Assembly (NCBI GenBank): GCA_038891055.1
Contig: JAWAEU010000001.1
Location: 1,475-65,474 of the forward strand
Reading direction: 5' to 3'
Length of the DNA stretch: 64,000 nucleotides
From: Candidatus Anstonellaceae archaeon
GTDB taxonomy: Archaea > Micrarchaeota > Micrarchaeia > Anstonellales > Anstonellaceae
Part shown: positions 5,669 through 62,528 of the stretch, piece after piece
How positions within the stretch are numbered: position 1 is the first letter of the stretch
Layout of the letters: each line of letters begins with the position of its first letter
Notes under the pieces: model-generated
What the model saw: the letters and a program-made list of their open reading frames with translations, nothing else
The model's database searches: none
Told to the model about the DNA's origin: nothing
Program-made: the position numbers and the translations under genes

Positions 5669-6130
5669 TTAGTCGTAGAGGCACCTACCAGCTATTGGTC
5701 TTACTCCTACTTGAGAAAGATTAGAAATTTCAGCACTATCATAATAGAGAACAATATTATAGCTAAAATAATCATAGTTTGGGCTGCATTGAGTCAAACC
5801 AGAGATTGAAATAGTCTTTTCTGCCCCTGGGCCAAATGTCCAGCCAGAGCCAAGAGAGGCAGAAAAATTTCCAGCCTTTAGGGATTTTAAAATTAAGCGC
5901 TTAGTATCAGTATTTTTTATTTTTAAATACAGGGTAGAATTTGATTGCACCCACTCTACAATAGCAAATGGCCTTGTGGAACTCCAATAAGTTTTTGATT
6001 CAGATTCCATAGCTGTAGCTGATGAATCTGAAAACCCACTTAAAAGCACAATTCCAATTAAGGAAATGATTAGTACAATTGCTATTAAAATTAAGTATTC
6101 CGCAGCTGCTTGCCCTCTAATATAAATCAC
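5669..6130 (-). CDS. Archaeal type IV pilin-like protein with class III signal peptide (DUF361-like)
   Basis: MIYIRG|QAAAEYLILIAIVLII places a prepilin cleavage motif (R/K-G-Q) before a hydrophobic helix. The C-terminus has two conserved Cys (…TQCSP…GRCLYD). GTG start directly after an in-frame stop. Paralogous to 34772-36285. Confidence 0.6.
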   Translation of the reverse strand: MIYIRGQAAAEYLILIAIVLIISLIGIVLLSGFSDSSATAMESESKTYWSSTRPFAIVEWVQSNSTLYLKIKNTDTKRLILKSLKAGNFSASLGSGWTFGPGAEKTISISGLTQCSPNYDYFSYNIVLYYDSAEISNLSQVGVRPIAGRCLYD

Positions 6131-6193
6131 CTAAAAAGTATTAATAAAAAAAATAAAGAGAAAATTAATAAATTCTTCTGTAAAAATTTAGAT

Positions 6194-7525
6194 ATGGCTC
6201 TTTTTGGTACCTCGGGGATTAGGGACATTTGCCCAAGAAATTTGGACGTTTGGAGTGCTTTTGAATTAGGACAAACAGCTGCCAAATTTTCAAAAAAAAT
6301 AGTGGTTGGATATGATGGCAGGCCAACCGGACAGATGTTATTGGATGCGCTTATAGCTGGAATTACCCAACAAAAGAGCAATTGCTTGAACATAGGAATT
6401 TGTACTACCCCTACTTTGTGTTGGTATACAAAAATAACAAAATCTCTTGGAATTATGATTACTGCCTCCCACAATCCCCTAGAATACAATGGTTTTAAAA
6501 TTTTTCAAAACGGACTTGAAGCCTCAGCTGAGCTTGAAAAGAAAATAGAAAAATCGCTAAAAAATACAAAAAAAAGACCAAAATATTTTGAGGTTGGAGA
6601 AATTAAAATAGAGGATACACAAGCCATCCAGCGACATTTTGAAATATTAAAAAGAAATTTTGATTTTGCAAAAATAAAAAAAGAAAACTTAAAAATATTG
6701 ATAGATTGTGCAAATTTAGCGGCTAGTATAACAAGCGTCTCAATACTTGAGAAATTTGGGATAACATTAATTAAAAAAAATTGCGAAATAGGAAAAAAAC
6801 CTGACAGAAAAATAGAGCCAAATGAGGAGAGCTTAAAAGATTTGACTAAAATCAAAGAAAAATTTGATTTTGCTATAGCTCATGATGGAGATGCTGACAG
6901 GGCAATAATTTTAGACCAAAATGCAAATATGATAGGATTGGATGTCCAACTAGCCATAGCCTCCGAATATTTTTTAAAAAATTTTAGTGAAAAAAAAATA
7001 GTCTCAACTATAGAATCATCTCTAATTTTAAAAGAAGTAGTAAAAAAATACAATGCTCAGCTATATTTAAGTGCTGTTGGAAGTAGGGCAGTTGCACAAT
7101 TGATGAGAAAAACTTCTGCTCCTTTTGGAGGAGAGCCTTGTGGAGAGTACATATTTAAAAACTCTGTTGGATGCCCCGATGGAATTGCTACTGCATTACT
7201 TTTTTGTCAGATATATATAAACGAAGGCAAGCTAAGTAAAATAAAGGAAAAATATAAAGTTTACCCAATAAAAAGAATTAAAATAAAAGTAGAAAAAGAA
7301 GAGAAAAAAATTTTTATGCAAAAAATAGAAAAACTCTGGCCATTTAGCACAAAAATAAAAATAGATGGGCTGAGGGCAGAAGAAGAGTGGGGTTGGATTC
7401 TGGTTAGGCCTTCTGGGACAGAAGATTATATTAGAATTACAATAGAAGCATATAAAGAAAAAGATTTAGAGGAAAACTTGGAGAGAATATTACAAGTGAT
7501 AAGAGATGTTATTAGAAGGAGATAA
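6194..7525 (+). CDS. Phosphohexomutase (phosphoglucosamine/phosphomannomutase family)
   Basis: FGTSGIRD, active-site ITASHNPLEYNGFK and metal-binding DGDADR. The ATG at 6194 (MALFGTSG…) is preferred over the upstream track start. Confidence 0.8.
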   Translation: MALFGTSGIRDICPRNLDVWSAFELGQTAAKFSKKIVVGYDGRPTGQMLLDALIAGITQQKSNCLNIGICTTPTLCWYTKITKSLGIMITASHNPLEYNGFKIFQNGLEASAELEKKIEKSLKNTKKRPKYFEVGEIKIEDTQAIQRHFEILKRNFDFAKIKKENLKILIDCANLAASITSVSILEKFGITLIKKNCEIGKKPDRKIEPNEESLKDLTKIKEKFDFAIAHDGDADRAIILDQNANMIGLDVQLAIASEYFLKNFSEKKIVSTIESSLILKEVVKKYNAQLYLSAVGSRAVAQLMRKTSAPFGGEPCGEYIFKNSVGCPDGIATALLFCQIYINEGKLSKIKEKYKVYPIKRIKIKVEKEEKKIFMQKIEKLWPFSTKIKIDGLRAEEEWGWILVRPSGTEDYIRITIEAYKEKDLEENLERILQVIRDVIRRR

Positions 7526-8252
7526 GGAAAAAAAATTAGAAAAAGGAGAAAAAGAGAGCGATAAAATCTCTCTTACTCCAGGACTTTTAAGTTTTATTAA
7601 ACAAGTTGGATTAAGCCCACAAGAAGCTAAAAGAATACTACGAACAAATTCACAAAGAATAGAAAACCTAGTAGAAGAGCTTGAAAAAAATAAAGGAAAA
7701 ATTATAAAAAACAATAAAAGAGAATTGGGGTTTGTAAATAAAGAGGTGCCAAAAGAAAAAATTGTGGGGTATGTTAAAATTGTAGTTCTTGTAGAAAGTG
7801 TTTTTGGAATTGAAGCAGAATATTTACTTGCGATTGCAACTCAAGAATCTAATCTTAAAAATCCAAAAAATGGGGATGGGTTTTACCAAATAAATCAAAT
7901 AACTATTAAAGAACTAAAAAATAAAAAAAGGTTTGACCAAATAAAAAATAGAATATGTGAAGACAGAAAAGATAACCCCCACTTAAAAGAAATTTTGGAA
8001 AATATATATAGTAAAATTATTATTGGTTTTGAGCCTTCAGCTAACTTTGGAACACAAACTATTTTAGCTATCTTAGTGTTGTACTTAAAACACTTGGAAA
8101 AAAATATACCAATAAGCGATAAAAAAAATTTGGCAAAGGAATACAACGGAAGTAAAAGAAAAGACGAATATGCAGAAGAAGTTATGGAAAGATATTTATA
8201 TTTAAAAAAGATTAGCTTTACAGAAAAAAGAAAAAAAAGTGATGAAAGATGA
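7506..8252 (+). CDS. Lytic transglycosylase (SLT domain, GH23 lysozyme-like) protein
   Basis: AIATQESNL…GDGFYQINQ…EYNGS matches the SLT ES / GLMQ / AYNxG motif triad. No N-terminal signal peptide. Overlaps the upstream gene by 20 nt. Confidence 0.5.
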   Translation: MLLEGDKEKKLEKGEKESDKISLTPGLLSFIKQVGLSPQEAKRILRTNSQRIENLVEELEKNKGKIIKNNKRELGFVNKEVPKEKIVGYVKIVVLVESVFGIEAEYLLAIATQESNLKNPKNGDGFYQINQITIKELKNKKRFDQIKNRICEDRKDNPHLKEILENIYSKIIIGFEPSANFGTQTILAILVLYLKHLEKNIPISDKKNLAKEYNGSKRKDEYAEEVMERYLYLKKISFTEKRKKSDER

Positions 8253-9190
8253 AAAAAATTTTAATAACTGGCTCAAATGGGCAAATTGGCTCTGAACTCA
8301 TAGAAGAACTTGTCAAGCTTTATGGAAAAGAAAATGTTATTGGATTAGACATAACAGAACCAAAAGAAGAAAAATATCAATTTGTAAAATTAGATGCTAC
8401 TGATTTTGAAGGACTAAAAAAAGTGATTGAAAAATATGATGTTGGAGAGATATATCACTTAGTTAGTTTACTCTCTGCAACTGGAGAAAAAAACCCAGAC
8501 CTTGCCTGGCATATTAATATGAGCTCTCTAAAAAATGTATTAGATATTGCAAGAGAGAGAAAAATAAAAGTTTTTTGGCCTTCTTCTATTGCTGCTTTTG
8601 GACCTACCACACCAAAAGAAAATACGCCCCAAAGAACTATATTAGAACCAAATACAATGTATGGAGTTACAAAAGTTGCAGGAGAACTTTTATGCAATTA
8701 TTATTTTTACAAATACCAAGTGGATGTAAGATCAGTTAGATTTCCTGGAATTATTTCTTGGAAAACACCACCTGGAGGTGGCACAACAGATTATGCGGTT
8801 GCTATTTTTTACGAGGCAATACAAAATAAATATTATAAATGCTTTGTTAGAGAGGACACTGTTTTGCCTATGATGTATATGCCAGATGCAATAAGAGCAA
8901 TTATAGAGATTATGAAAGCTGAGAGAGAAAAAATAAAAATTAGAACAAGTTATAATTTGGCTGCAATTTCATTTAAAGCTAAAGATTTAGAATTAGAGTT
9001 AAAAAAATATATTGATTTTGAAATTGAATATTCTCCTGATTATAGGCAACAGATAGCAGATTCCTGGCCAAAAACTATTGATGACAGCCAAGCAAGAAAG
9101 GATTGGGGCTGGAAACACAAATATGATTTGGCTGCTATGACAAAAGACATGTATACAAATTTAACTAAAAAATTAAAATCAAAAAAATAG
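8249..9190 (+). CDS. NAD-dependent epimerase/dehydratase (L-threonine 3-dehydrogenase / UDP-sugar epimerase-like SDR)
   Basis: N-terminal Rossmann motif KILITGSNGQIGSEL and YGVTK (YxxxK), 313 aa. ATGA overlap with the upstream gene. Confidence 0.6.
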   Translation: MKKILITGSNGQIGSELIEELVKLYGKENVIGLDITEPKEEKYQFVKLDATDFEGLKKVIEKYDVGEIYHLVSLLSATGEKNPDLAWHINMSSLKNVLDIARERKIKVFWPSSIAAFGPTTPKENTPQRTILEPNTMYGVTKVAGELLCNYYFYKYQVDVRSVRFPGIISWKTPPGGGTTDYAVAIFYEAIQNKYYKCFVREDTVLPMMYMPDAIRAIIEIMKAEREKIKIRTSYNLAAISFKAKDLELELKKYIDFEIEYSPDYRQQIADSWPKTIDDSQARKDWGWKHKYDLAAMTKDMYTNLTKKLKSKK

Positions 9191-9197
9191 GCAAAAA

Positions 9198-10415
9198 TTA
9201 TAAGTCCTCTAAAGTTTTTTGTTTTTTTGAAAATAATTTAGAAAGAAAAGATTGCTCTTTTTTAGAGTTTTTAGCATTAAAGCAAGATGCTTTTTTGCAA
9301 AGGAAAATAAAAACAAATTTGAATAATGCATAAAAAACTATAGCTGCTGCAACTATAGTTAATAACATATCGATTTGACTAAAAAGATTTGTATTATTTT
9401 CTATCTTTTGAGATAAAGCTGGCTTAGAATCATTTTCCAAAAATTCATTTTGGATTGTTTTGTTATTTATTTCAGAATTATTTTCTTCTAAAGACTTAAA
9501 TATAAACACTGGATTTTCTTCTGAACTATAAATTACAGAAGTATTTGATTGGGTCTTTTTAAATAGTTCAGAATTTTGCTTTATTTTTTCTATTCCCTCT
9601 CTAAATTTTTTATTTTTTATAAAATTTTCGTAGTATTCTTTTAATTTAGAGTAAGAATCAGCCAATACTTCTGAAGAGAAATTTAAATCTCCTGCATAAA
9701 TAATAGAATCTTTTGATTGTATTTTTAGAGAAGAATAGGCAGTAGAATAATGATTTAATTTTTCAAAAAAATTTAAGTAATAATCTAAAATTTCTTGGTC
9801 GGTATAATTATTTAGTCTTTGTCTAAACAATTTTTCTGAATCAATTAAACTTGAAAAAGCCTTTTTTATTTCTGAAAATTCTAACATACCATCTATTATT
9901 TCTGAAGATTTGTACTTATAAGCCTCATAACAAAATAAAGAAGAAAAACAAATTTCTCTACACTCTGAGACAGAGGTGCAATAAGAGTTATTCAAACCTA
10001 ACAAAAAGGAGTACTTTAATTCCTTAAATTTCACATCCTCCAAATACTTATCTATAAGTGGTAGAAGTTTAGCAATAAAATCAGCAGTATTTTCCATAGC
10101 AGTAGGACTAAAAGCAGATCTTTTATATAAGACATTTTCAATTGTTTGATTATCTACTAATGCATCCACTTTAATTGAATTATTATCTATGTTTAAAACT
10201 AATAGTGCAAAGGGCTCAGCATAAGAATAAACCAAAACATATTCTCGCCCATCATAACCAACAAAATGATCCAATCTATCTGAAGAGATGTTATAAGAAT
10301 TCAAAAATTCAAAAGTAGCTTGCTGCTTATCATAAACTGTTATGCCAAAGAAAAATTTAAAACAACACAGAAAATAAACTAAAAACAAAAAAAAATTTTT
10401 ATTATGCCAGTTCAT
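9198..10415 (-). CDS. Hypothetical membrane-anchored protein (N-terminal signal/TM and C-terminal TM)
   Basis: 405-aa ORF with hydrophobic N-terminus (FFLFLVYFLCCFKFFFG), many N-x-S/T sequons and a C-terminal TM (LLTIVAAAIVFYALF). ATG at 10415; the track start is TTG. Confidence 0.5.
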   Translation of the reverse strand: MNWHNKNFFLFLVYFLCCFKFFFGITVYDKQQATFEFLNSYNISSDRLDHFVGYDGREYVLVYSYAEPFALLVLNIDNNSIKVDALVDNQTIENVLYKRSAFSPTAMENTADFIAKLLPLIDKYLEDVKFKELKYSFLLGLNNSYCTSVSECREICFSSLFCYEAYKYKSSEIIDGMLEFSEIKKAFSSLIDSEKLFRQRLNNYTDQEILDYYLNFFEKLNHYSTAYSSLKIQSKDSIIYAGDLNFSSEVLADSYSKLKEYYENFIKNKKFREGIEKIKQNSELFKKTQSNTSVIYSSEENPVFIFKSLEENNSEINNKTIQNEFLENDSKPALSQKIENNTNLFSQIDMLLTIVAAAIVFYALFKFVFIFLCKKASCFNAKNSKKEQSFLSKLFSKKQKTLEDL

Positions 10416-10468
10416 CAAAAATAAATACTCAATAAAATTTTTAAATTATTAACAAGCAACTAAATAAT

Positions 10469-12318: not shown

Positions 12319-13329
12319 ATGACAATTAATATAGTGGTTGGCGGGCAATATGGAGATGAGGGCAAAGGAAAAATTATCTCTTACTTGGCACTAGAAGATA
12401 GACCAGAAGTTGTTGCAAGAGGAGGTGGTGGCCCAAATGCAGGGCATACTGTTGAATATAAATCAAAAAAATACAAAATTAGATTAGTGCCATCTGGGTT
12501 TGTATATAAAAAAGCTACTTTAGTTATTGGACCAGGTGTTTTAATAGATCCAGAGATTTTCTTAGAGGAGATAGAAAATTTTGATGTAAAAGATAGATGT
12601 TTTTTAGATAGAGCAGCTACAATAATAGATCCAAAATACAAAGAAGAAGATGCAAATTCTCAAATTTCAAAAATGATTGGCACTACAAAAAGTGGGATAG
12701 GGCCTGCAACTGCTCATAGAGCATTAAGAGATGCAAAATTAGCTGAAGAAGATGAAAGGCTAAAACCATACTTAGCAGATTGCTGGAAGATTGTAAATTC
12801 TACTAAAAACTTACTTGTAGAAGGAAGTCAAGGATTTATGCTTTCTAATTTGCATGGAACATATCCATATTGTACTGCTAAGGATGTAAGCGCCTGTGCT
12901 ATTTGCTCAGAAATTGGCCTAGGACCAAAAAAAGTAGATAATGTAATTATGGTGATAAAATCATATACTACAAGAGTAGGCCAAGGTCCACTTCAAGGTG
13001 AAATAAGTCCTCAAAAAGCCAAAGAACTTGGGATGGACGAATATGGCACAGTAACTGGAAGACAGAGAAGAGTTAATCCTAACTTAATTTGGGAAGAATT
13101 ACAAAAAGCATCTATAGTAAATAGTGCAACTTGTATCGCCCTTACAAAACTGGATATAAAATATCCACAAGCAAAAGGAATAGTGGAATTTGAAAAATTA
13201 CCTCCAGAGGCAAAAGAGTTTGTTTTTGAAATAGAAAAAAAATTGGAGGTGCCAGTTGGACTTATAGGCACAGGCCCAGATGCTATGGATATAATTGATA
13301 GAAGAGAAGAAGTTGGGATAAAAAAATAG
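12319..13329 (+). CDS. purA: Adenylosuccinate synthetase (short archaeal type)
   Basis: GGQYGDEGKGK and GGGPNAGHTV, 336 aa. Confidence 0.9.
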   Translation: MTINIVVGGQYGDEGKGKIISYLALEDRPEVVARGGGGPNAGHTVEYKSKKYKIRLVPSGFVYKKATLVIGPGVLIDPEIFLEEIENFDVKDRCFLDRAATIIDPKYKEEDANSQISKMIGTTKSGIGPATAHRALRDAKLAEEDERLKPYLADCWKIVNSTKNLLVEGSQGFMLSNLHGTYPYCTAKDVSACAICSEIGLGPKKVDNVIMVIKSYTTRVGQGPLQGEISPQKAKELGMDEYGTVTGRQRRVNPNLIWEELQKASIVNSATCIALTKLDIKYPQAKGIVEFEKLPPEAKEFVFEIEKKLEVPVGLIGTGPDAMDIIDRREEVGIKK

Positions 13330-13347
13330 GAAAATCAAAGAAATTTA

Positions 13348-13755
13348 CTAATCGCCTACACTGTTGCTTTTCTCTTCAAATTCTTTGGCTAAAAAAAATT
13401 CCTTTTCTCTAAAGCCAAACAAGTTGGCTACTAAAATTGATGGAAATTCCTGGAGTTTTACATTATACAAGCTAACTCTTTTATTATATACTTTTCTTTC
13501 ATGAACTAGCTCGTTTTCTATTTGCTTAAGATTATTTTGAAGCATTATAAAGCTTTTATTAGCTTTAAGTTCTGGATATCTTTCTTGAATAATTAGTAGT
13601 TTAGAAAGAGCTGCCTCAAGCATATTTGCATTTTTTATTCTTTCATCTTGTCCTTTACTTTGGCCCCACTGGGATCTGAGTCTAACTACTTCTTCTAAGG
13701 TTCTTTTTTCGTGTTTGGCATATCCCTCCACACATTTCACAAGAGCTGGAATCAA
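13348..13755 (-). pseudogene. LemA family protein, N-terminally truncated fragment
   Basis: IPALVKCVEGYAKHEKRTLEEV…YPELKAN…FPSILVANLFGF matches the LemA core. The ~50-aa N-terminal TM/start region is missing: an in-frame TAG lies 4 codons upstream of the TTG, and the upstream gene ends only 72 nt away. Confidence 0.55.
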
Positions 13756-13827
13756 ATCAAAACTCTACCTACTAAATTTTTTACTCTGATAAATACCAAA
13801 ATGTCAAAATGCTTTAATATTAATTTT

Positions 13828-16800
13828 TTATAAATCAATTAAACCTCTTTTCTTTTTAAGGCCAAACAAAAATACTGCTACCCCACCTCCAATAATAACT
13901 ACAACCAACAGAGCAAAAATCATCCACTCTAAATTCTCTGAAGTTTTTTGAGGAGATGATTGTACTTGCTGCTCTTGAATTGTCTGTCCATAACTTTGTT
14001 CAGCGGGGTAGGATGACTGAGACCTTGATGATTGCTGCCCTTGCTCTTTTTTACTTTCAGGTTGCTGAGGTGGTGTTGGTAAATTAGTAGGTAGCTGAAG
14101 CTGTTCTTTTGATTGCTGGGGTGGTGTTTCTAGAGGTGGTTGTGTTATTTCTTGGCTAAGAGTAGGAGTATTTGTTGATCTTTGAACTATTCCTCCTCCA
14201 GAATAAATTGATGAAGTTGAGGAAGAAGTGGAAGAAGAGCTAGAAGATTGAGATGAAGAAGGTGTATTATCATACAGCCCTAAAACTGAAAAACTATCAA
14301 TACTTACATTTATTGTCTTGGTGGTTGTGTTATAAGAAATAATTGGTACTGAGATACAATTTGAACCATCATCTTGGCATTTTTTAATTATTAGATTGCC
14401 TGCATCTAATAAATTTTCTATTTGCTGTTGCAAAGTTGAATTTAGAGCTGAATAATTAAACTGCACAGTAATATTTGGGCTAAATCTCAATCCAGCAGGA
14501 CCTAATAAAATAGTTAACTCAGAAAAGTTAGAAGCTCTTGAATTGTTAACTGCTAAATCTCCACTGGATAGAGATACATTATGAATGAAAATTAAACCTG
14601 GCGTGTAGTATGAAGAAAAGTTACTAATTGAAGTATTGTTTGCGATGTGGATAGATACAGATGCATTGTTTGATGGGTTATTATAGTGTAGGGCAAATGT
14701 CTGGTTGGTTCTATTCTCTTCATTTAATGACGAATAATTTCCAGCTCCTTCTAAAATAGTTATAGAGATATTTTGTTGTTGGCTAAATAGGTCAAACTCA
14801 TCACTAACCTTTACTTCGCAAGTTATATTATCTAAAGCAGAAAAGTTTTGGCTACTTAAAGTAGCATTGTTATAATCAGAATAAAGAGAGGAGATTAATT
14901 CTCCATTCTTATACCACTTATAGCTATAATTTTTAATAGTGTCATTATCTGGGTCAGATACTTCTATAATACAAGTTAAATTTGTAAAACTAAAAGCTTT
15001 TGGTGGCATTAGATTTAGTGAAGAAATATTTGGAGCAAAATTTGGTAGAGAGGCTGTAGTGGTAGAAGTATTAACAGAGGCCTCAAGATTATCCCTAAAA
15101 GTAACATTGATAGAAAAGTTTTGTGAATTATATATTGTTTCTGGGGGAATCCTACAGAGAAAACTGACATTAAATAAATTATTTGAAGTAGAATTAGAAA
15201 TCTGGGTACAAAATGCTATGGAAGGATCGGAAATTTCCATACTTACATCCACTATATCTATTGCTCCATCCTCATCACTTACCAAGGCATAAAAAATGGC
15301 TTTATGTCCTGGTTGATTTTGAACTAATGTTAGATCATTCACTAAAACAGGTGCACTGTTATTGATACCAAAAAGCACAGAGGTATTTACAAGATTGCCA
15401 CTCTGACCTCCAAAATCTTTAGCATATACCTCTAATTTGTATATACCTCTACCTAATGAAAGATCGGACAATATGCAATTAATTTCATCCCATCCTGGAG
15501 TGGAATTTGTACAATTGGCACTATTGGTAGAATTAAAAAGATAAACAAAAGTATTAAGTGTGGAGCCATTTAGAGCCTTTAGAATAATAGTAAGATTTGA
15601 AATAGCGCTGGAAGTGCCGTTTGCAGTTATATTAATTATAGGAGTAGAAGAATAATTGCTTTTGGATGGGGAGGAAATAGTTATAGAAGGTTCTACTAAG
15701 TCAGAAATATTATAACCTGAGAATTTATTTATATTAATAGTTAAATTTCCTGTGAAGAACCCATAGTCCTGATTAAATGTCCCCTGAGACCACTGGATAG
15801 TACCATCAAATTCTCCTTCATCATAAATAACATTAGGAGTAGAAGAAAAAGGTAAATCATACAAAACTACTCTTGCAGAAGTATTCAAATAAGATGCAGC
15901 TGTAGAATTCACAAATATCCTTGAGGGTTCAAATGAAAATGGCCTACCTATATTAACATGTATTAGATTTCCAATTGCATTAGCTACTGCAGCTGCTTTT
16001 TGAGGAGTGCTTATATCAACAGAACTAAAATTAAACATAGCTACTTTTTTGAAAGTATTGCCCCAAGGTAGAGATTGATTTAATGGACTACAAGAAGCAG
16101 AGCCATTTAATTCAATCACCTTTACTAAATTCACATTTTTAAAATCTAATACTTCTGACAAGTTTGTAGTTTCTTCACCTTCTCTAAAACATAAAGAAAA
16201 TTCTTCTGGTGGTCCTTGAATTGCACCTAAGTTATGTAAAATAAAAGGTATTGAAATGTTGCTCGAATGGCCTGCAGCATCAGTTGCATTTACTACTGCT
16301 AAAGCTACTGTTGGAATGGTAATATTATGAGATTGTATAAAGTCACCTACATTACAGCCATCCTCATTATACCAAAATTCCCCAGAAGCAGCTAAATCAA
16401 TAGGACCACAAATTTGAGTGCCATTTTCAAGCATAAAGATTACTGTGGCATTTGAAATATATGATACATTGTCATTAGCTCCAATTTTTATATGGACTAG
16501 ATTATTATTTTGTGCAGGAGAATAAAAAATATCTTGTTCTAATAGATTGGTAGAAGAATAATTAAAAAAATATGGTGGAGAATAATCTACAAAAAGGTCA
16601 GCTAAATATTCTTCATATGAGCCTCCACTATCAAAATAGGCTGTAATATAAAGGTTATATCTTCCCTCTTGTTGAGGTACAACCAAAGTACAGTTTGTGG
16701 ACCAATTAACTTCACCAACAACTAATTCAGATGTGTTGGTAAAGTTAGCGCCAACAGAGCAGTTTGGTAAACTTATATTATTTACTAGATAAGAAGAGTT

Positions 16801-16962
16801 AGTAGTGATATTTATAGACACTTGCAGTGAAGATTGTGAAGGGTTAGATGCAACCAAAGGAACCATACTAAAACTGCTACCATCTATAATGAAATATTCA
16901 TGTATCGAAAACAAAATATTTATAAAAAAAATAGATAGCAAAAAGAAAAAGTAATTTTTCAT
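13828..16962 (-). CDS. Large cell-surface glycoprotein with signal peptide, >50 N-x-S/T sequons, Ser-rich then Pro/Gln-rich stalk and C-terminal TM anchor
   Basis: Signal peptide MKNYFFFLLSIFFINILFS, poly-Ser (SSSQSSSSSSTSSSTSS), a PPQQ…PTPPQQP stalk and a terminal TM (IFALLVVVIIGGGVAVFLFGL) followed by KKKR. The track start at 17070 lies inside tRNA-Thr; the ATG at 16962 is used. Confidence 0.65.
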   Translation of the reverse strand: MKNYFFFLLSIFFINILFSIHEYFIIDGSSFSMVPLVASNPSQSSLQVSINITTNSSYLVNNISLPNCSVGANFTNTSELVVGEVNWSTNCTLVVPQQEGRYNLYITAYFDSGGSYEEYLADLFVDYSPPYFFNYSSTNLLEQDIFYSPAQNNNLVHIKIGANDNVSYISNATVIFMLENGTQICGPIDLAASGEFWYNEDGCNVGDFIQSHNITIPTVALAVVNATDAAGHSSNISIPFILHNLGAIQGPPEEFSLCFREGEETTNLSEVLDFKNVNLVKVIELNGSASCSPLNQSLPWGNTFKKVAMFNFSSVDISTPQKAAAVANAIGNLIHVNIGRPFSFEPSRIFVNSTAASYLNTSARVVLYDLPFSSTPNVIYDEGEFDGTIQWSQGTFNQDYGFFTGNLTININKFSGYNISDLVEPSITISSPSKSNYSSTPIINITANGTSSAISNLTIILKALNGSTLNTFVYLFNSTNSANCTNSTPGWDEINCILSDLSLGRGIYKLEVYAKDFGGQSGNLVNTSVLFGINNSAPVLVNDLTLVQNQPGHKAIFYALVSDEDGAIDIVDVSMEISDPSIAFCTQISNSTSNNLFNVSFLCRIPPETIYNSQNFSINVTFRDNLEASVNTSTTTASLPNFAPNISSLNLMPPKAFSFTNLTCIIEVSDPDNDTIKNYSYKWYKNGELISSLYSDYNNATLSSQNFSALDNITCEVKVSDEFDLFSQQQNISITILEGAGNYSSLNEENRTNQTFALHYNNPSNNASVSIHIANNTSISNFSSYYTPGLIFIHNVSLSSGDLAVNNSRASNFSELTILLGPAGLRFSPNITVQFNYSALNSTLQQQIENLLDAGNLIIKKCQDDGSNCISVPIISYNTTTKTINVSIDSFSVLGLYDNTPSSSQSSSSSSTSSSTSSIYSGGGIVQRSTNTPTLSQEITQPPLETPPQQSKEQLQLPTNLPTPPQQPESKKEQGQQSSRSQSSYPAEQSYGQTIQEQQVQSSPQKTSENLEWMIFALLVVVIIGGGVAVFLFGLKKKRGLIDL

Positions 16963-17028
16963 ATAAAACAACCCCTTGAGTGTAAAAATTAATAAATAAA
17001 GGCTTTTAAAACTTTCCAAAAGCAAAAA

Positions 17029-17100
17029 AGCCCCCGGCGAGGATTGAACTCGCGACCTCTTGCTTACCATGCAAGCGCTCTACCACTGAGCTACGAGGGC
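17029..17100 (-). tRNA. tRNA-Thr (anticodon GGT)
   Basis: Reverse strand GCCCTCGTAGCTCAGTGGTAGAGCGCTTGCATGGTAAGCAAGAGGTCGCGAGTTCAATCCTCGCCGGGGGCT folds as a cloverleaf with T-loop TTCAATC and anticodon loop AUGGUAA. GC-rich island in AT-rich DNA. Confidence 0.8.
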
Positions 17101-18696: not shown

Positions 18697-19182
18697 ATGA
18701 GTCTAACAAGAATAGAGCAAGAAGTGCTAAATGCATTAAAAGAGATGAGCCATTGTATTTATTTTGATGAGCCTGCAGCTAAGATATTGACAATTATTTT
18801 TCTTTCATCCAAACCTGTTAGTATGAGCCACATAGTCAAAAAATCCTCTATAAGCAAGACAAATGTATTTTTAAAATTAAAAAAAATTGAAGAAGCTGCA
18901 ATTATTAAAAAAATGAAGCAGCCCGGTACAAAGGAATTTTTATATTATATAGATCGAGATTTAAACAACCTCATAATTGAGCATATGAAAAAAAAGTATG
19001 AAGAATTTATGCTTTCTAGTCAATTGAAAATCCAAGATATTTTACTCAAATACAAAAAAATAAAAGATCTAAGCAAAGAGGAAAAAAACCAAATAAAAAT
19101 CTTAGATAACTATTACAAAAAAAATGTAAAGCTTTTAAAAATTCTTAGAAAATTTTTTGCACAATTGAGTGATAGAATATGA
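18697..19182 (+). CDS. Putative winged-helix transcriptional regulator
   Basis: 161-aa ORF with an AGGTGG RBS-like element upstream. The N-terminal ~80 aa is wHTH-like. The stop overlaps the start of the ABC ATPase (ATATGA). Confidence 0.4.
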   Translation: MSLTRIEQEVLNALKEMSHCIYFDEPAAKILTIIFLSSKPVSMSHIVKKSSISKTNVFLKLKKIEEAAIIKKMKQPGTKEFLYYIDRDLNNLIIEHMKKKYEEFMLSSQLKIQDILLKYKKIKDLSKEEKNQIKILDNYYKKNVKLLKILRKFFAQLSDRI

Positions 19183-19871
19183 AGAAAGAAATACTTACAA
19201 TGGAAAATGTCACAAAGAAATACCAAATGGGACTTCAAGAAATTAGTGCAGTTGAGAATATAAATTTAAAAGTAACAGAAGGTGAGAGAATCTCCATAAT
19301 TGGACCATCAGGCTCTGGAAAAACCACTCTACTCAATTTATTAGGTTTGCTAGATAGACCCACTAGTGGAAAAATCTATATTGACCAAACAGATACTACT
19401 ACACTAGATGATGATGAACTTTCTTATTTTCGTGGAAAAAAAATAGGGTTTGTATTTCAAAACTTTAATTTGATCCCCTCTCTAACTGCCTTAGAGAATG
19501 CATTTTTACCTCTGATGTTTTATAACGTACCATATGAACAAAGGATAAAAAGAGCAACTGAATTATTAGAGAGACTTGGATTAGGAAATAGACTTGAGTA
19601 TTACCCTTCTCAACTTTCAGGAGGACAGAGACAGAGAGTTGCTATAGCAAGGGCATTAATAAATAATCCAACTATTTTATTAGCTGATGAACCTACTGGA
19701 AATTTGGACAGTAAATCTGGAGAAGAAGTTTTAGAGATATTTGATGAATTGCATAAAGAGGGAAGGACTATTATAGTAGTTACTCATGATATTAATGTGG
19801 CTAAAAAAAGTCCACGAATAATTAAAATAAAAGATGGAAAAATAGAAGCTGACCAAAAGGTGAGAAAATGA
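19179..19871 (+). CDS. ABC transporter ATP-binding protein (MacB/LolD-like)
   Basis: Walker A GPSGSGKTT, ABC signature LSGGQRQRVAIARAL and Walker B ILLADEPTGNLD. Confidence 0.9.
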   Translation: MKKEILTMENVTKKYQMGLQEISAVENINLKVTEGERISIIGPSGSGKTTLLNLLGLLDRPTSGKIYIDQTDTTTLDDDELSYFRGKKIGFVFQNFNLIPSLTALENAFLPLMFYNVPYEQRIKRATELLERLGLGNRLEYYPSQLSGGQRQRVAIARALINNPTILLADEPTGNLDSKSGEEVLEIFDELHKEGRTIIVVTHDINVAKKSPRIIKIKDGKIEADQKVRK

Positions 19872-21346
19872 AGAAATTTTTTGTAATATTAGCACTATTG
19901 ATTGGAATAGTAGTTGCAGACATCTCTGTTTCCAATATAGTTACTAACCCAACTACAATTAGGCCCGGGACTATAGGCCTAATAACAATGACAATTACAA
20001 ATACGGATAATTCTGGAATAAATTCTGTTACTGCAGAACCTTCTCCACAATTCCCTCTAAAGGCAGGGCAGAAGTACTACTTAGGAGATTTTAAACCATC
20101 CAGTACCTCTACTTTTTCTTTTCCATTCTCGGTGGAACAGAATACAGATGGTGGAGTATTTTATATAAGCGTTAGGTTTACATGGGTTAATGGCAGTGGA
20201 GCTTTTGTAAAAACAATTCAAATTCCAATAGTTGTTAAAAACGAACCAATATTTTTGGTTGAGTCGAGTATGGAAAAGATAACTACGGAAGGAGAGTTTA
20301 CATTTCCTATTAAAATAACAAACAAGGGAGGAAAGGCAAAAAATATAAGAGTAGAAGTAAGCAGCCCTGATGTTTATGAAATTGGAAAAAACAAAAATAT
20401 TATCGAAAAATTAGAAAAAGATGAGCAAAAGGAAATAAAATTTTTACTATCAATGCTGGAAGATAGGGGTTCTGGTACTTACAACATTCCAATTAAAATT
20501 ACATATATAGATAGTACTGAAAAAGAAAATGAAGTTTTAGAACAAATAAAATTAATTATAATAAAAAAATCTCCAGAATTAAAAATAGAACTTCAACCTG
20601 GTCAGGTTTTAGAACCTGGTTCCAAAAAACCTCTAAGATTTTTAGTAAAAAATACTGGTGAAAAAACAGCATACTTTGTAAGAATAGGAATAGAAAACCA
20701 AACAGTATTGACTGTTTTGGAAGGAAATTATTTGGAGATTGGAGATCTTGAACCGAATTCTCAAAAAGAAATAGTTTTTAATGTTGGAATAAAGGACGTA
20801 ACTCCAGGATACTACACACAGCCATTTTACATAAAAACAAAGGACGAGAAAGGAAATGAAAAAATTCCTCAAATATATAACCTTGGCTTAGACATTTATG
20901 CAAAACCAAAGTTAAATGTATTTGTTTCTGGAAAACCAAGCCCTATGGAAACCAATCAGGATCATGTCCTAACAGTAATAGTTTCAAATGTGGGAATAAC
21001 TCCAATAAAATCATTAGTAGTTCAACTTCAATCGGAGGATTTTATATTGCAAGAAATTCAAAACGAGCAATATATTGGTTCATTAGCCGAAGATGATTTT
21101 TCTTCTGTACAATTTAAAATAAAGGCACCTGCAGAAGAAGGCAAAAAAACCCTTAATGTAAAACTAAAATTCTTAGATAATTATAATAATGAGCAAGTAA
21201 TAGAAAAACAAATAAATATAATGGTATATAAAAAGAAAGAGAATGGATTTAATCCACTTATTGGCCTTGCAGTGTTTATTGTCGCAGTTGTTTTAATTTG
21301 GTATTTCAAGCTAAGAAAAAGGAAAGATAAACATGCTGCCAAATGA
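19868..21346 (+). CDS. Secreted, C-terminally TM-anchored multi-domain (CARDB/Ig-like) protein encoded inside the ABC operon
   Basis: Signal peptide MKKFFVILALLIGIVVA, beta-rich repeated domains (…ITMTITNTDNSG…, …RFLVKNTGEKTAYFVRIG…, …TVIVSNVGITPIKS…) and a C-terminal TM plus basic tail. Translationally coupled to both flanking genes. Confidence 0.55.
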   Translation: MKKFFVILALLIGIVVADISVSNIVTNPTTIRPGTIGLITMTITNTDNSGINSVTAEPSPQFPLKAGQKYYLGDFKPSSTSTFSFPFSVEQNTDGGVFYISVRFTWVNGSGAFVKTIQIPIVVKNEPIFLVESSMEKITTEGEFTFPIKITNKGGKAKNIRVEVSSPDVYEIGKNKNIIEKLEKDEQKEIKFLLSMLEDRGSGTYNIPIKITYIDSTEKENEVLEQIKLIIIKKSPELKIELQPGQVLEPGSKKPLRFLVKNTGEKTAYFVRIGIENQTVLTVLEGNYLEIGDLEPNSQKEIVFNVGIKDVTPGYYTQPFYIKTKDEKGNEKIPQIYNLGLDIYAKPKLNVFVSGKPSPMETNQDHVLTVIVSNVGITPIKSLVVQLQSEDFILQEIQNEQYIGSLAEDDFSSVQFKIKAPAEEGKKTLNVKLKFLDNYNNEQVIEKQINIMVYKKKENGFNPLIGLAVFIVAVVLIWYFKLRKRKDKHAAK

Positions 21347-22562
21347 TATAATTCAATACGTTATAAAGTCTTTTAAGTATAGAAAATTGAGATCTTATCT
21401 GACACTTCTAGCAATTTTAATTGGAGTAGTGGCAGTAGTAGTCATAATTTCCATAAGTGATGGACTTATTGCTCAAATAAACGATCAGCTTCAGGCATTT
21501 GGCCCTAAAAATGGAGTTTTAGTAGCTGGAGATATTAGCAGGGGACCTACAATTCAGTCACAAAATTTTAGAGCTCCTCTAGAAGGAAAGATAACCACTA
21601 AAGATTATGAGACCATAAAAACCCATCCTGCAATAAAATATATAACAAAAAGAATAAATCTAAACACACAATTAGAATATAAAAAAAGAAATTTAACTGC
21701 AAGTGTTTGGGGAATAGAACCAGAGCAATTTTTTACAATGATGAATCTCTCTGTCCAAAAAGGTAGGATTATCTTACCTGGAGAAAAAAGTGTTGCTGTT
21801 GTTGGAGAAGCATTTACAGATAATACTATTTTTAAGGATAATCCCATCGAGATAGGTTCATTTATTTATTTAGGAAAAAACAAAAAAAAATTTAAAGTAG
21901 TAGGAGTGTTAGATCCAACAAACGTAGTAGCAAGAAATGGAATTTTAATAGCATTCGAAGATGCTAGAGATTTGGGGTTAGAAGAAGAAAAAATAATGAA
22001 AGACGAATTAAGTGCGGTTGCCTTTCAGGTTGCAGATGGTTATGAATTAAATGAAGTAGTTAGAGAATTAGAAGAAAAACTAAAAAGTTCAAGAAAGCTT
22101 CCACTAAATAAAAAAGATTTTACTATAGTTACTGCCGAATTTATCCTAAACCAGGTAATAACAATAATTGGGGCAGTAACTTTATTTTTGAGTTTTGTAT
22201 CTGGTTTGGCATTTTTTATAGGTAGCATAGGAATAGCAAATACACTATATATGGGAGTAGTAGAAAAAACAAAAGATATTGGGATCATGAGAGCAATTGG
22301 CGCTAGTAAAAAAGATATTGCAAAATTAGTAATTGTAGAGGGAGCAACATTTGGACTGATTGGAGGAATTTTAGGACTATTGGTTGGCTTTACAATAGCT
22401 CAAATAATAAATCAGTTTGGATTTAAAACAACTCTTGGTTTGCATGTTGCCTTTGCTGCTATCGCAGTAAGCACCTTGGTTGGTATTATTGCAAGTTACT
22501 ATCCTGCTAAAATAGCTGCAGAATTAGATCCAATAAAAGCTATATCTACCAATGTAAGATAA
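21333..22562 (+). CDS. ABC transporter permease, FtsX/MacB family
   Basis: N-terminal TM, large extracytoplasmic domain and a C-terminal FtsX-type 3-TM bundle (…FLSFVSGLAFFIGSIGIANTLYM…). Confidence 0.8.
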   Translation: MLPNDIIQYVIKSFKYRKLRSYLTLLAILIGVVAVVVIISISDGLIAQINDQLQAFGPKNGVLVAGDISRGPTIQSQNFRAPLEGKITTKDYETIKTHPAIKYITKRINLNTQLEYKKRNLTASVWGIEPEQFFTMMNLSVQKGRIILPGEKSVAVVGEAFTDNTIFKDNPIEIGSFIYLGKNKKKFKVVGVLDPTNVVARNGILIAFEDARDLGLEEEKIMKDELSAVAFQVADGYELNEVVRELEEKLKSSRKLPLNKKDFTIVTAEFILNQVITIIGAVTLFLSFVSGLAFFIGSIGIANTLYMGVVEKTKDIGIMRAIGASKKDIAKLVIVEGATFGLIGGILGLLVGFTIAQIINQFGFKTTLGLHVAFAAIAVSTLVGIIASYYPAKIAAELDPIKAISTNVR

Positions 22563-22563
22563 G

Positions 22564-23796
22564 GTGAAAAAATTGAAAATTGAAGATTATTTTTATTACA
22601 ATATAAAGACACTAAAACATTCTAAGATTTTAACTATTTTAACAATTTTTGGAATAATGATAGGTGTTTGGGCAATAATTTCTTTAATAGGGATTAGTGA
22701 AGGTCTAAAAAAAACTGTTGATGAACTAATAGAAGTATTTGGGCCAAACAACATTATAATAACACCAGGAAATACTTTTAGCCAAATAAGCTTTGGACCT
22801 ACAGTTAGGGCGAGTAGAGGAAAATTATTTGAAAAAGATATTCAAGCTATTTCCTCCATTGTCGGAATAAAAAAAATAGTGCCATTCTTGATTTCCCCTC
22901 TAGAAGTAAAATACAAAGATAAAGAAGTTAAAATAACAATTATAGGTTCTTACCCAGAAGAGCTTGACGAGATATATAAAGATTATTATGAAATTGAGGA
23001 GGGAAGAAAACTAAAAAATAATGACAAAAAAGTTGCTGTATTGGGAAGTAATATTGCTAAAGAAGTTTTTGATAAAGAAATCCTAGTTGGTCAAAAGATA
23101 TATATAGGAAGTCAAAAAGAGGAATTTTTTGTTGTAGGTATTTTTAAGAAAAAAGGTGGGCTGGAAGGAGTAGATGTAGATAATTCTATTTTTATAACTT
23201 ACGATGATGCAAAAAAACTTTTTAAATCAATAAAATTACAAAATGAGGTTGACAGTATTTTAGTAAATGTAGAAGAAGGGTTCGATGTAGAGAGCATCGC
23301 ACAGTTAATAGAATACAAATTAGCCTCATTACACAAAGTTAGTTTAGATGAAAAAGACTTTCTGGTCTCTACATCTAAAAATATAAAGGAAAGAATAGAT
23401 ACTATTAGTAATTTGCTATCAACTTTTTTAATAGGAATTGCTTCTATTTCTATTCTAGTTGGTGGAATTGGAATTACAAATACGATGTATTCTTCTATTT
23501 TGCAAAGAACATATGAGATAGGAGTATTGAGAGCTACAGGTGCTACAAAAAGAGACATATTGATTATTTTTCTACTAAATAGTGCAATCATAGGCCTGGC
23601 TGGAGGATTAGCTGCTTTGATAGGTTCTTGGATCTTATTTTTTATACTTGGATTTTTTGGTATTAAAGCGATTCTTTCCCTTCCATTAGCTCTTTTTTCC
23701 ATTCTATTTGGATTTATAATTGGTTTGGTCGCTGGTTATCCCCCAGCAAGGAAGGCGGCTGAAGTAGATCCTATCGAAAGTCTAAGATATGAATAA
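22564..23796 (+). CDS. ABC transporter permease, FtsX/MacB family (second copy)
   Basis: Same architecture as the upstream permease (…ILVGGIGITNTMYSSILQRTYEIGVLRATGATKRDI…). Confidence 0.8.
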   Translation: MKKLKIEDYFYYNIKTLKHSKILTILTIFGIMIGVWAIISLIGISEGLKKTVDELIEVFGPNNIIITPGNTFSQISFGPTVRASRGKLFEKDIQAISSIVGIKKIVPFLISPLEVKYKDKEVKITIIGSYPEELDEIYKDYYEIEEGRKLKNNDKKVAVLGSNIAKEVFDKEILVGQKIYIGSQKEEFFVVGIFKKKGGLEGVDVDNSIFITYDDAKKLFKSIKLQNEVDSILVNVEEGFDVESIAQLIEYKLASLHKVSLDEKDFLVSTSKNIKERIDTISNLLSTFLIGIASISILVGGIGITNTMYSSILQRTYEIGVLRATGATKRDILIIFLLNSAIIGLAGGLAALIGSWILFFILGFFGIKAILSLPLALFSILFGFIIGLVAGYPPARKAAEVDPIESLRYE

Positions 23797-25667: not shown

Positions 25668-25838
25668 AAAATTTTAAAGAAGAAAAATTTTAAAAATAGA
25701 TAATGCTGCTAAATTATCCTGTTAATTTTCTTCTAATAATTTTTAGCATTTTTTGAACTTATTGAATATTGACTAATTTGCTAAAAAAAATATTAAATTA
25801 GAATCATAAAATTAGTGTAGAATAAAAAAATTTAATAT

Positions 25839-25950
25839 GTCAGCAACAACTGGCTTTCCCGCCAGATGGCAGTAACGGCCAGTCACAAGCAGGCTTAACT
25901 TCCGAGTTCGAAATGGGATCGGGTGTTACCCTGCTCTTATGGTCGCTGAC
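25839..25950 (-). rRNA. 5S ribosomal RNA
   Basis: Reverse strand GTCAGCGACCATAAGAGCAGGGTAACACCCGATCCCATTTCGAACTCGGAAGTTAAGCCTGCTTGTGACTGG…GTTGCTGAC contains the conserved CCGAUCCCAUUUCGAACUCGGAAGUUAAGC block, with terminal helix GUCAGC/GCUGAC. GC-rich island. A TATA-like element (TTTATATAA) lies ~25 nt upstream. Confidence 0.8.
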
Positions 25951-28091: not shown

Positions 28092-28224
28092 TGCCAAGGG
28101 GGGGATTTGAACCCCCGACTTCCAGATTTCTCAACGTGCCAAAAATATATCATTGCAAAAGCTCAACACTCATAAATAAAAATTTATGAGTCTGGCACTC
28201 TAAACCAGGCTGAGTTACCTTGGC
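28092..28224 (-). tRNA. tRNA-Met or tRNA-Ile2 (anticodon CAT), elongator type, with a ~57-nt intron at the canonical 37/38 position
   Basis: Reverse strand reads GCCAAGG-TA-ACTC…GAGT-G-CCAGA-CTCATA[A-intron…GAGAAA]TCTGG-AAGTC-GGGGGTTCAAATCCCCC-CCTTGGC-A. The intron segment TTTATGAGT can pair with the anticodon loop ACTCATAAA, as expected for a BHB splice structure. 133 nt total. Confidence 0.75.
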
Positions 28225-29759: not shown

Positions 29760-29830
29760 AACAAGTTTTTGCAAAATTTGATTTAGTGCGATAAATTTTT
29801 ATTTTATAAATTAGATATAAAATTTGTAAA

Positions 29831-30046
29831 TGGCCCTCGAGCCACTTTCGCTGCCTATTTGGAGGCAGTGAGGAAGCTCTACCCACCAGGTTTTATTAGC
29901 CAACCACATAAAGTGGGGGCATCTTGAGCAGAAACGCTACCCATTTTGGGATGAAACGGCAGGATGCCCTGGCTAGCTGGTGCAAGGCCAGTTTTGGCCG
30001 CTAAGTCAAATGTGGCTTAAAACAGAAGGTAGACTATTGAGGGCCA
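29831..30046 (+). ncRNA. rnpB: RNase P RNA candidate (minimal, ~216 nt)
   Basis: GC-rich island with terminal helix GGCCCUCGA…UUGAGGGCC (P1). The P4 strands UCUACC (after AGGAAG) and GGUAGA (after ACAGAA) match CR-I/CR-V context, and GGGAUGAAACGGCAGG is CR-II-like (GGGUGAAANGGUG). A TATA-like TTTATAAAT lies ~30 nt upstream. Confidence 0.55.
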
Positions 30047-30055
30047 TTTTATAAA

Positions 30056-31726
30056 TTATTTTTTGATTACTTTTAAAAACTCTTTTAGTTCTTTGATTTG
30101 ATTCTCCACATATTCTTCAACTTTGTTTATATCTTCTTGTGAAATAATATCTAATTTACTTAATAATCTGAAGCCCTCTTTGTCTTTTTTCAATAAATCT
30201 AAAAGGAAAGCCGTTCTTTCTTTTTCTGCTATGACTGAATATAAGTTTTTTAGTATTTGTTTTAGTTTTTCTTTTTCAGCTATTAGATCTTGTTCTTGAC
30301 TAACAGCCACAGTTTGGGGGTTTAGTTGTGCGCTTTCAGAAAGTTTTTCTACAGTTTGAGTAGGTTGCTCTTCAATCAGATTAACTAAAGACTGCTTTTC
30401 TTTTTCTCCAAGACCCCCATATTTAAGAATTTTTTGAATTATGTTTTTTGGAATAGAATCAAAAAATCTTGTTTTTTTTACGGGTTTGCCTTCCTTTTCC
30501 AATATTTTTATAATTTTTTCCTTTGCTTTGGAATTTTTTAGGATAGTAGTATCTTTTTTACACTCTTCTAAAATTTCTTTTTTTATTTGTTTGTCTTTTA
30601 TTTTTGAAACTAGGAGTAGTTTAGAATTGAGCCCAAAATCTTCTCTGAAAAATAATTTTTTGTAAAATTCATCATCTGCAGAGATACTTTGTATAATATA
30701 CGATTTTTCTTTTTCTTTTAATTCAACAAAGTTTAGTAGAACTTTTTTTAGAATTTCATTTAAATTTGAGAATTCTGGGGTTTTTTGTGCAGATAATAAG
30801 CTTTCTGAATTCACTTGTTTTTTTGAGCTACTTTTTACTCCTAAGTGGTGCATTATATAACTTGGGACTTTTAAATTTTGTTCTTCTATTTTTTTTAAAA
30901 TCTCATTTTTAATACTTTTTGCTGCAGAAGCAGCTATGTAGGATCTAGTCCAATTTCTTGCATTTGGGTAAAGAAACAAATCCACAAGAATCTTGTCATC
31001 TTTTGGTATTTGTTTTATTTTCTTGATCAAATCAATCTGTTTTTTGTTAGATAGAAAAAACTCATTTAGTTTTTCTTTATCAATTTCTTCTTTTTTGCAA
31101 TTATCCAAGAGTTCAATTATTTTTTTAATATTTTGTTCTACATTAGCTTTAGTTGTATCATCTATAATCTTGTCTGCGAGTTTTGTAATATCAGAATTTT
31201 CAGCTTTTGACTCTAAAACCATCAAAATCCATTGAATGGTTTCTTTTGTCTTTTGATCCAATAATTCTATTTTTTTAGCACTAAGAAGAGATCCCATCAC
31301 TTCGATTATCTTTTTACAATCCTCCAGACTATAGTCTCTGCCGTATCCGATCGCTCTTATTACTGCACCCTTATAATCTGTTTTCAATTCTTTTATTAGT
31401 GTGTTGGCACAAAAGTTAGCTATTTTAGAAGGCTCCTCGCCATTTGCAACCAATTCCAAATAAGAGCGATTAGAGGGAAGAATATGAATATTTTTTTCTA
31501 AAATTTCTTTTGCATTTTCAGATTTTTCTATAGTGTATACTAAGATCGTTTCAACGCATTTGCTCCATCTTTGTGACTCTAAAAGTTCTTTTGCCTTTTC
31601 TTCATTTTTTTGTTCATTAATTTTAATAGCAGTACTCGTTTCTTCTGGTATTATTTCCTTATATTTATCAAAGTTTTCTTTACTTACTTTTAGTTGTTCT
31701 TGCTTTTTTATAATATTGCGTTCCAT
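30056..31726 (-). CDS. Hypothetical K/E-rich soluble protein
   Basis: 556-aa ORF with no TM segment and no recognisable motif. Confidence 0.45.
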   Translation of the reverse strand: MERNIIKKQEQLKVSKENFDKYKEIIPEETSTAIKINEQKNEEKAKELLESQRWSKCVETILVYTIEKSENAKEILEKNIHILPSNRSYLELVANGEEPSKIANFCANTLIKELKTDYKGAVIRAIGYGRDYSLEDCKKIIEVMGSLLSAKKIELLDQKTKETIQWILMVLESKAENSDITKLADKIIDDTTKANVEQNIKKIIELLDNCKKEEIDKEKLNEFFLSNKKQIDLIKKIKQIPKDDKILVDLFLYPNARNWTRSYIAASAAKSIKNEILKKIEEQNLKVPSYIMHHLGVKSSSKKQVNSESLLSAQKTPEFSNLNEILKKVLLNFVELKEKEKSYIIQSISADDEFYKKLFFREDFGLNSKLLLVSKIKDKQIKKEILEECKKDTTILKNSKAKEKIIKILEKEGKPVKKTRFFDSIPKNIIQKILKYGGLGEKEKQSLVNLIEEQPTQTVEKLSESAQLNPQTVAVSQEQDLIAEKEKLKQILKNLYSVIAEKERTAFLLDLLKKDKEGFRLLSKLDIISQEDINKVEEYVENQIKELKEFLKVIKK

Positions 31727-49752: not shown

Positions 49753-49849
49753 ATTTAAAAAAGTACCAAAAAATCGACAAAATCTATTTGAAAAGATAGA
49801 ATTTGGGTGAAGATATTCCGACAAACTAGATTTTAGCTAGGTGTGGTAT

Positions 49850-61001: not shown

Positions 61002-62528
<1,527 letters not shown>

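Follow-up and report, generated by a model that had tools for sequence, protein, structure and literature searches.

A signal-less, position-fixed family of divergent SLT-superfamily proteins in Anstonellaceae archaea

A 64,000-nucleotide stretch of the genome of a Candidatus Anstonellaceae archaeon (contig JAWAEU010000001.1; hereafter the window) carries a gene for a 248-residue protein best classed with the SLT superfamily as a divergent member, a placement that is secured through its family of homologues. We read this SLT-like gene as vertically inherited on the chromosome of Anstonellaceae (Micrarchaeota); it is restricted to Anstonellaceae-like genomes, where it occupies a single chromosomal site, and judged from its sequence the enzyme is apparently intact despite strong divergence. 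With moderate confidence, we read it as an active SLT/GH23 lytic transglycosylase of the family-1 type that would use E114 as its acid/base to cleave a glycan of N-acetylmuramic acid and N-acetylglucosamine (MurNAc/GlcNAc), likeliest the murein of contacted or scavenged bacteria, after non-classical export.

The open reading frame and its SLT-like motifs had been noted in an original prediction made from the DNA letters alone, which placed them in archaeal DNA, and both can be read directly in the sequence. The host genome is archaeal, with matches to archaeal 16S, 23S and 5S ribosomal RNA (rRNA) and to RNase P RNA, and the window has a GC content of 31.8%. The nearest database protein (P0001, 96% identity), named 'hypothetical protein', comes from a Candidatus Anstonellaceae archaeon, and Candidatus Anstonellaceae belong to the Micrarchaeota and hence to the DPANN group.

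Family searches and SLT membership

Searches begun from the single sequence (Pfam, NCBIfam, PHROGs and phmmer against the PDB) were all non-significant or sub-threshold, including a match to the IagB model (E=9e-4) whose 18.8 bits fall far under the 208-bit cut-off. Among 1.84 billion representative proteins, an exhaustive HMMER search returned six clusters only (P0001 to P0006, E 7e-102 to 2.6e-13), with links within the family at E=3e-42 to 2.6e-13 and no protein outside the family at E<=0.001. Word-indexed searches added P0007 and P0008; none of them recovered more than six family members, and no protein from elsewhere appeared even at E<=1. A profile scan of genome contigs returned only two metagenome-assembled genomes (MAGs), both Micrarchaeota, and no relatives were found on JGI metagenome contigs, a weak negative because the patterns used were too narrow for P0006-type members. 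Family members are 240-266 residues long, and the named ones all derive from Micrarchaeota/Anstonellaceae MAGs.

Four homologues pass the PF01464 cut-off (P0002 with 23.4 bits, P0006 with 36.7, P0007 with 34.7 and P0008 with 32.8), and the matches of P0006, P0007 and P0008 cover profile positions 5-99, third motif included. P0002 is 51% identical to the window protein and P0006 to P0008 are 29-34% identical. Membership by profile therefore holds transitively: the window protein itself stays below the cut-off, but these four homologues match significantly.

Catalytic motifs, predicted fold and N-terminus

Conservation and structure prediction were based on an alignment of nine family sequences. 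Family-1 lytic transglycosylases share the consensus motifs ES, GLMQ..T, AYNxG and Y..V. Across the nine sequences, at ~30% identity, residues E114, G125, Q128, T133, Y213, N214, G215, Y222 and V226 are invariant, and together they correspond in the alignment to these four motifs. In the window protein, Q113-E114-S115 is read at 7842-7850, with position 115 a Ser in 8/9 members and a Thr in P0003; G125-F-Y-Q128 lies at 7878-7889 and T133 at 7902-7904, the L and M positions of motif II being replaced by F, Y or P in the family; and Y213-N214-G215 lies at 8142-8150, where the Ala of motif III is a Glu. The motif set proposed originally (ES, GLMQ-like and AYNxG-like) thus withstands comparison, its residues being invariant or conservatively substituted. 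The catalytic domain carries ~30 extra residues separating motifs II and III.

When the domain alignment was compared by hhalign with characterized enzymes, E114 fell on E505 of the E. coli Slt70 precursor, which we take to be E478 of the mature protein assuming a 27-residue signal peptide, and on E64 of MltE, the residue mutated in inactive E64Q crystal forms; G125..T133 aligned with GLMQIMPGT of Slt70. E114 was also aligned with E115 of phiKZ gp144, in a PDB profile match that is not significant.

AlphaFold2 (AF2) gave an unusable model from the single sequence (predicted local distance difference test, pLDDT, 45), and a model with pLDDT 81.8 and a predicted template modelling score (pTM) of 0.82 when supplied with the nine-sequence alignment. 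Compared with solved structures, the predicted fold is lysozyme-like and alpha-helical, with structural match scores of 10.9 for MltF, 10.1 for the Ralstonia GH23 chitinase, 9.8 and 9.5 for the GH73 enzymes LytB and FlgJ, 8.9 for g-type lysozyme, 8.5 each for MltE and MltC, 8.4 for Slt70 and 7.8 for the archaeal chitinase ChiD. Because the motifs are conserved in nine homologues, four of which pass the Pfam cut-off, and because the predicted fold is lysozyme-like, they are more than chance; together with the hhalign comparisons to Slt70 and MltE, these data bear out the earlier assignment to the SLT/GH23 lysozyme fold, with the catalytic Glu conserved.

Ahead of the catalytic domain, all nine members (9/9) carry a family-specific domain that AF2 models as three helices (residues 25-34, 38-47 and 49-61) followed by a beta-hairpin (66-75). 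This domain has no significant match in the PDB or Pfam, the best hit of a PDB profile search being the N-domain of GlnRS (E=0.45); it probably serves targeting or regulation. The K/E-rich tail that precedes it, residues 1-19, is not a signal peptide. Within the first 80 residues of the window protein there is no hydrophobic stretch (highest 19-residue Kyte-Doolittle mean 0.57) and no Cys, lipobox or RR motif, and none of the nine members has a hydrophobic N-terminal segment, lipobox, RR motif or membrane helix. Hydropathy and motif inspection of the N-terminus accordingly agree with the original prediction that a classical signal peptide is missing.

Predicted activity and alternative explanations

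The established chemistry of family-1 lytic transglycosylases provides the basis for the mechanism that we propose. By analogy, a MurNAc/GlcNAc-type glycan would be held in a groove lined by G125..Q128, T133 and Y213-N214-G215, and E114 would protonate its beta-1,4 glycosidic oxygen; the 2-acetamido group would then assist formation of an oxazolinium intermediate, and E114 would next activate the C6 hydroxyl to give a 1,6-anhydro product. g-type lysozymes use additional Asp residues, and by analogy with them a single-Glu transglycosylase route is favoured over hydrolysis because the nine-sequence alignment holds no conserved acidic residue between E114 and G125. The likeliest substrate would be peptidoglycan from bacteria with which the archaeon is in contact or on which it scavenges. 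As no member has an export signal, the enzyme would either leave the cell non-classically, through cell-cell contact, vesicles or lysis, or act on imported fragments. Action on bacterial walls has likewise been proposed for SLT/GH23 proteins of other DPANN archaea (PMC8204110, PMC9723730, PMC5864196, PMC8561730).

Several points weigh against reading the protein as such an enzyme. Scored alone, the window protein matches PF01464 only at E=0.01 (15.9 bits, below the 21.3-bit gathering cut-off) and only over profile positions 10-56; PDB profile searches with family alignments gave only E 0.1-0.4, to phiKZ gp144 and LytB; and Foldseek agrees with the fold at weak E-values (0.15 against the PDB, 0.02 against viral models). 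With the GH23 chitinase and GH73 glucosaminidases among the nearest structural matches, the fold alone does not identify the substrate. Murein is absent from archaea, and the Anstonellaceae lineage has no known host. Bacterial lytic transglycosylases are secreted, whereas all family members lack a signal of the Sec, Tat, lipoprotein or class III type. The gene also evolves much faster than its neighbours, which could reflect relaxed constraint. Published DPANN SLT proteins, too, are predicted to be secreted or described as extracellular (PMC8204110, PMC9723730, PMC5864196, PMC8561730).

The missing signal, the chitinases among the fold matches and the coupling to a GlmM-like gene would all suit a cytoplasmic GH23-type chitinase or lysozyme, which would cleave chito-oligosaccharides or muropeptide fragments after import, or archaeal glycans that contain GlcNAc, and so feed amino-sugar metabolism beside GlmM. 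We regard this as unlikely, if far from negligible. In its motifs (ES, GxxQ, YNG, Y..V) the window protein agrees with family-1 lytic transglycosylases, and its motif pattern is closer to these enzymes than to the GH23 chitinase of Ralstonia sp. A-471 (3w6b/3w6e) or to archaeal ChiD (5xsv). Furthermore, the nine-sequence alignment shows no second conserved carboxylate between E114 and G125 that could serve hydrolysis, the gene order is functionally mixed, with a threonine dehydrogenase downstream, and the surroundings of the gene show no deacetylase and no transporter for chitin or oligosaccharides.

Bolder still would be a contact-delivered enzyme that breaches the murein wall of a bacterial host, or one with a non-murein archaeal glycan as its substrate, with the N-terminal domain as a delivery or targeting module; we think this rather unlikely. 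A nearby pilin-like gene also raises the prospect of a 'specialised' transglycosylase analogue, or of a non-catalytic glycan binder, that serves a type IV pilin-like system or the cell envelope. IagB, EtgA and VirB1 are bacterial precedents that open the wall for surface machines (secretion and pilus systems). An analogue of this type is improbable here: those enzymes carry Sec signals, are secreted and act on the producer's own murein, whereas the archaeon lacks a murein layer that could be opened; the score of 18.8 bits is far below the 208 bits required by the IagB model; and the pilin gene lies on the opposite strand, where its proximity may only be inherited gene order.

The original prediction had also raised a proviral endolysin remnant or a horizontally acquired enzyme. 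Signal-less lysozyme-fold enzymes are typical of phage endolysins, and among PDB entries the closest match by sequence is the phiKZ gp144 endolysin, which likewise lacks a signal peptide and has an SLT domain behind a small helical N-terminal one. This match falls short of significance (E 0.1-0.4), however, the N-terminal domain of the window protein has no PG_binding_1 match, and its context is non-viral. The gene keeps its position among cellular genes in six lineages despite divergence to 34-51% identity; no phage genes are found near it, the only PHROG match (E=0.012) being to a family of function not known; IMG/VR viral contigs yielded no relative; its GC content of 27.2% is within about 1 standard deviation of the window's 30.2 +/- 2.9%; and the 1.84-billion-protein search returned no close bacterial or phage homologue. 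The marks of a phage endolysin (a viral neighbourhood or viral contigs, a patchy and mobile distribution, an atypical composition) are thus missing, and an origin as a prophage remnant or by recent uptake of a bacterial gene is highly improbable. Of the earlier suggestions, the proviral remnant falls, and horizontal acquisition survives only as an ancient event: recent transfer is ruled out, no donor can be named because the searches yielded no outgroup, and any bacterial origin would predate the family. The host attack suggested earlier stays a hypothesis. Least credible of all is a chance motif resemblance in a K/E-rich helical non-SLT protein, to which the sub-threshold single-sequence Pfam match (E=0.01) and AF2 model (pLDDT 45) might point, and which is refuted by the lysozyme-like fold, the Pfam scores of the homologues and the hhalign matches to Slt70 and MltE.

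Evolutionary constraint

Across lineages, identity to the window orthologue is 34-51% for the SLT-like protein, compared with 54-66% for the GlmM-like protein and 81-86% for the L-threonine 3-dehydrogenase (TDH), whose gene is the best conserved of the block. For two pairs of closely related genomes, the ratio of nonsynonymous to synonymous substitution rates (dN/dS) of the SLT-like gene is 0.34 and 0.56, values that rest on small substitution counts and are among the highest of the neighbourhood (0.03-0.46 for the neighbours, where the ratio is computable). Both values are below 1, and the gene is therefore constrained though fast-evolving. Motif residues are unchanged among the substitutions in the close pairs. 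Purifying selection on the gene is weak but real.

Relation to known enzymes

With the family-1 lytic transglycosylases (PF01464, GH23; Slt70 C-domain, MltE, MltC and Pseudomonas aeruginosa MltF), the window protein shares the lysozyme fold and the four motifs. It differs from them in its identity of only 11-17%, the insertion between motifs II and III, a new N-terminal domain, the lack of a signal peptide or lipobox, and a host archaeon without murein.

SLT/GH23 domains in DPANN archaea, Micrarchaeota included, have already been published, with the same proposed role on bacterial cell walls; those proteins are up to about 3000 residues long and/or predicted to be secreted or extracellular, and were detected by standard annotation (PMC8204110, PMC9723730, PMC5864196, PMC8561730). 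The Anstonellaceae family, in contrast, is small, signal-less, 'hypothetical' or unnamed in databases, and held at one chromosomal position. It is also distinct from fam00969, which comprises very large multidomain extracellular SLT proteins of Pacearchaeota or Woesearchaeota (PMC8204110): its members have 240-266 residues and no signal, and the named ones are Micrarchaeota/Anstonellaceae. Set among known DPANN SLT domains, the only unusual point is the missing export signal; what is new here is a lineage-restricted subfamily with a novel N-terminal domain, no signal peptide and a fixed chromosomal position.

With these results, a family listed as 'hypothetical' in public databases gains an assigned fold and a probable catalytic residue, and the DPANN SLT/GH23 enzymes gain a small signal-less, position-fixed subfamily. 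At present this is a refinement of annotation and not a new kind of system. If bacterial murein is degraded, the family would suggest that Anstonellaceae have bacteria as partners or prey, and if delivery is by contact, it would imply archaeon-on-bacterium parasitism in hot-spring Micrarchaeota. Action within the cell or on archaeal glycans would instead broaden the known substrate range of GH23, and a non-murein archaeal glycan as substrate would be a new GH23 specificity.

Gene neighbourhood

The SLT-like gene and its immediate neighbours are listed below.

Table 1. Coordinates of the SLT-like gene, its predicted domains and motifs, and adjacent genes in the window.
Feature	Position	Strand	Basis
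SLT-like gene, complete, stop included	7506..8252	+	ORF (open reading frame) list and sequence; ATG start, 248 aa
N-terminal K/E-rich tail, aa 1-19, predicted disordered	7506..7562	+	pLDDT <50; hydropathy about -1.7; alignment variable
Family-specific N-terminal domain, aa 24-76	7575..7733	+	AF2 model, block-mean pLDDT 78-95
SLT/GH23 lysozyme-fold catalytic domain, aa 83-233	7752..8204	+	
Motif I, E114-S115, predicted acid/base Glu	7845..7850	+	E114 invariant, 9 sequences
Motif II, G125-x-x-Q128 (GLMQ equivalent), and T133 at Q+5	7878..7904	+	G125, Q128, T133 invariant
Motif III, Y213-N214-G215 (AYNxG equivalent), and motif IV, Y222..V226	8142..8183	+	Invariant; Pfam SLT alignment of homologues reaches here
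GlmM-like phosphohexomutase, upstream	6194..7525	+	TIGR03990 E=1e-115, 387 bits, below 439 cut-off; four PGM_PMM Pfam domains
SDR-type (short-chain dehydrogenase/reductase) L-threonine 3-dehydrogenase (TDH), downstream	8249..9190	+	Solved PDB TDHs, E=5e-117 to 1.7e-130
Pilin-like protein, 153 aa, divergently transcribed	5669..6130	-	N-terminus RGQAAAEYLILIAIVLII read from sequence as class III signal

The order pilin-like (-), GlmM-like (+), SLT-like (+), TDH (+) is the same in 6/6 lineages with enough flank; the contig of P0004 is too short for most neighbours, and the SLT-like gene there abuts a gene on each side. The other neighbours (RadA, NUDIX, rhomboid, PurA) are cellular. The upstream PGM/PMM-family gene matches archaeal phosphoglucosamine mutase (GlmM) best. 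This gene probably starts at ATG 6194 and not TTG 6110, because homologues begin MxLFGTSGIRD; a start at TTG 6110 would make the ORF (6110..7525) overlap the pilin-like gene. We rejected a fusion or frameshift between this gene and the SLT-like gene, since the mutase alignment runs to position 443 of 444 in the GlmM model, and disregarded two antisense ORFs (7490..7714 and 7895..8146), which are F/S-rich mirror images of the K/E-rich gene.

The SLT-like start overlaps the stop of the GlmM-like gene by 20 nt (7506 versus 7525), and the downstream start overlaps the SLT-like stop by 4 nt (8249 versus 8252). An overlap between the GlmM-like stop and the SLT-like start (1, 8 or 20 nt) is present in all six lineages with enough flank. 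Overlaps are common in the window, at 11/41 gene junctions with ~92% of the sequence coding, and typical of streamlined Anstonellales genomes, one genus of which reportedly has 27-43% of its genes overlapping (PMC12892359); the overlap therefore says little about function. The Pfam label of NAD-dependent epimerase for 8249..9190 was rejected in favour of the match to solved L-threonine dehydrogenases, and with it a 'sugar operon' of mutase, transglycosylase and epimerase. Because the downstream gene is a TDH, the three genes do not form one pathway. The earlier description of a gene embedded in a housekeeping operon is thus true to the letter, but weak as evidence.

The pilin-like protein is conserved at 59-75% identity and adjoins the GlmM-like gene divergently in the six lineages with enough flank. 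In our own reading of the sequence, its N-terminus is presumably an archaeal class III (type IV pilin-like) signal. A weak PF04021 match in two lineages (L006 and L007) belongs to a different, 155-residue gene downstream and not to the pilin-like orthologue.

In one related genome (L003, GCA_038886135.1), the GlmM-like (6590..8020) and adenylosuccinate synthetase (12815..13924) genes are each split into two ORFs, whereas both are intact in the window, L001 and L002; the splits are probably assembly or sequencing errors or pseudogenisation. Beyond TDH, a 406-residue ORF on the minus strand (9198..10418) has a hydrophobic N-terminus, a C-terminal membrane anchor and no Pfam or NCBIfam match. Its identity across lineages is 33-48%, and it differs from its L001 orthologue by 14 nonsynonymous and 0 synonymous substitutions, compared with dN/dS values of 0.08-0.46 for its neighbours, making it a candidate surface protein under diversifying selection.

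Other features of the window

Seven large ORFs (555-1369 residues; 13828..17070, 30056..31726, 32244..34598, 43864..45579, 45643..49752, 56007..58142 and 59029..60816) have no Pfam match at E<=1e-5 and may be lineage-specific large proteins, as typical of DPANN genomes. An overlapping gene run at 18697..23796 (+) encodes a CARDB-domain protein (19868..21346) and two MacB/FtsX-type permeases (21333..22562 and 22564..23796), a possible export or efflux system. The rRNA genes are unlinked and scattered, with 5S at 25838..25950 (-), 23S at 49837..52745 (-) and 16S at 61002..62529 (+). The RNase P RNA match is only 220 nt long (29829..30048), and a transfer RNA match at 28092..28224 spans 133 nt and probably contains an intron.

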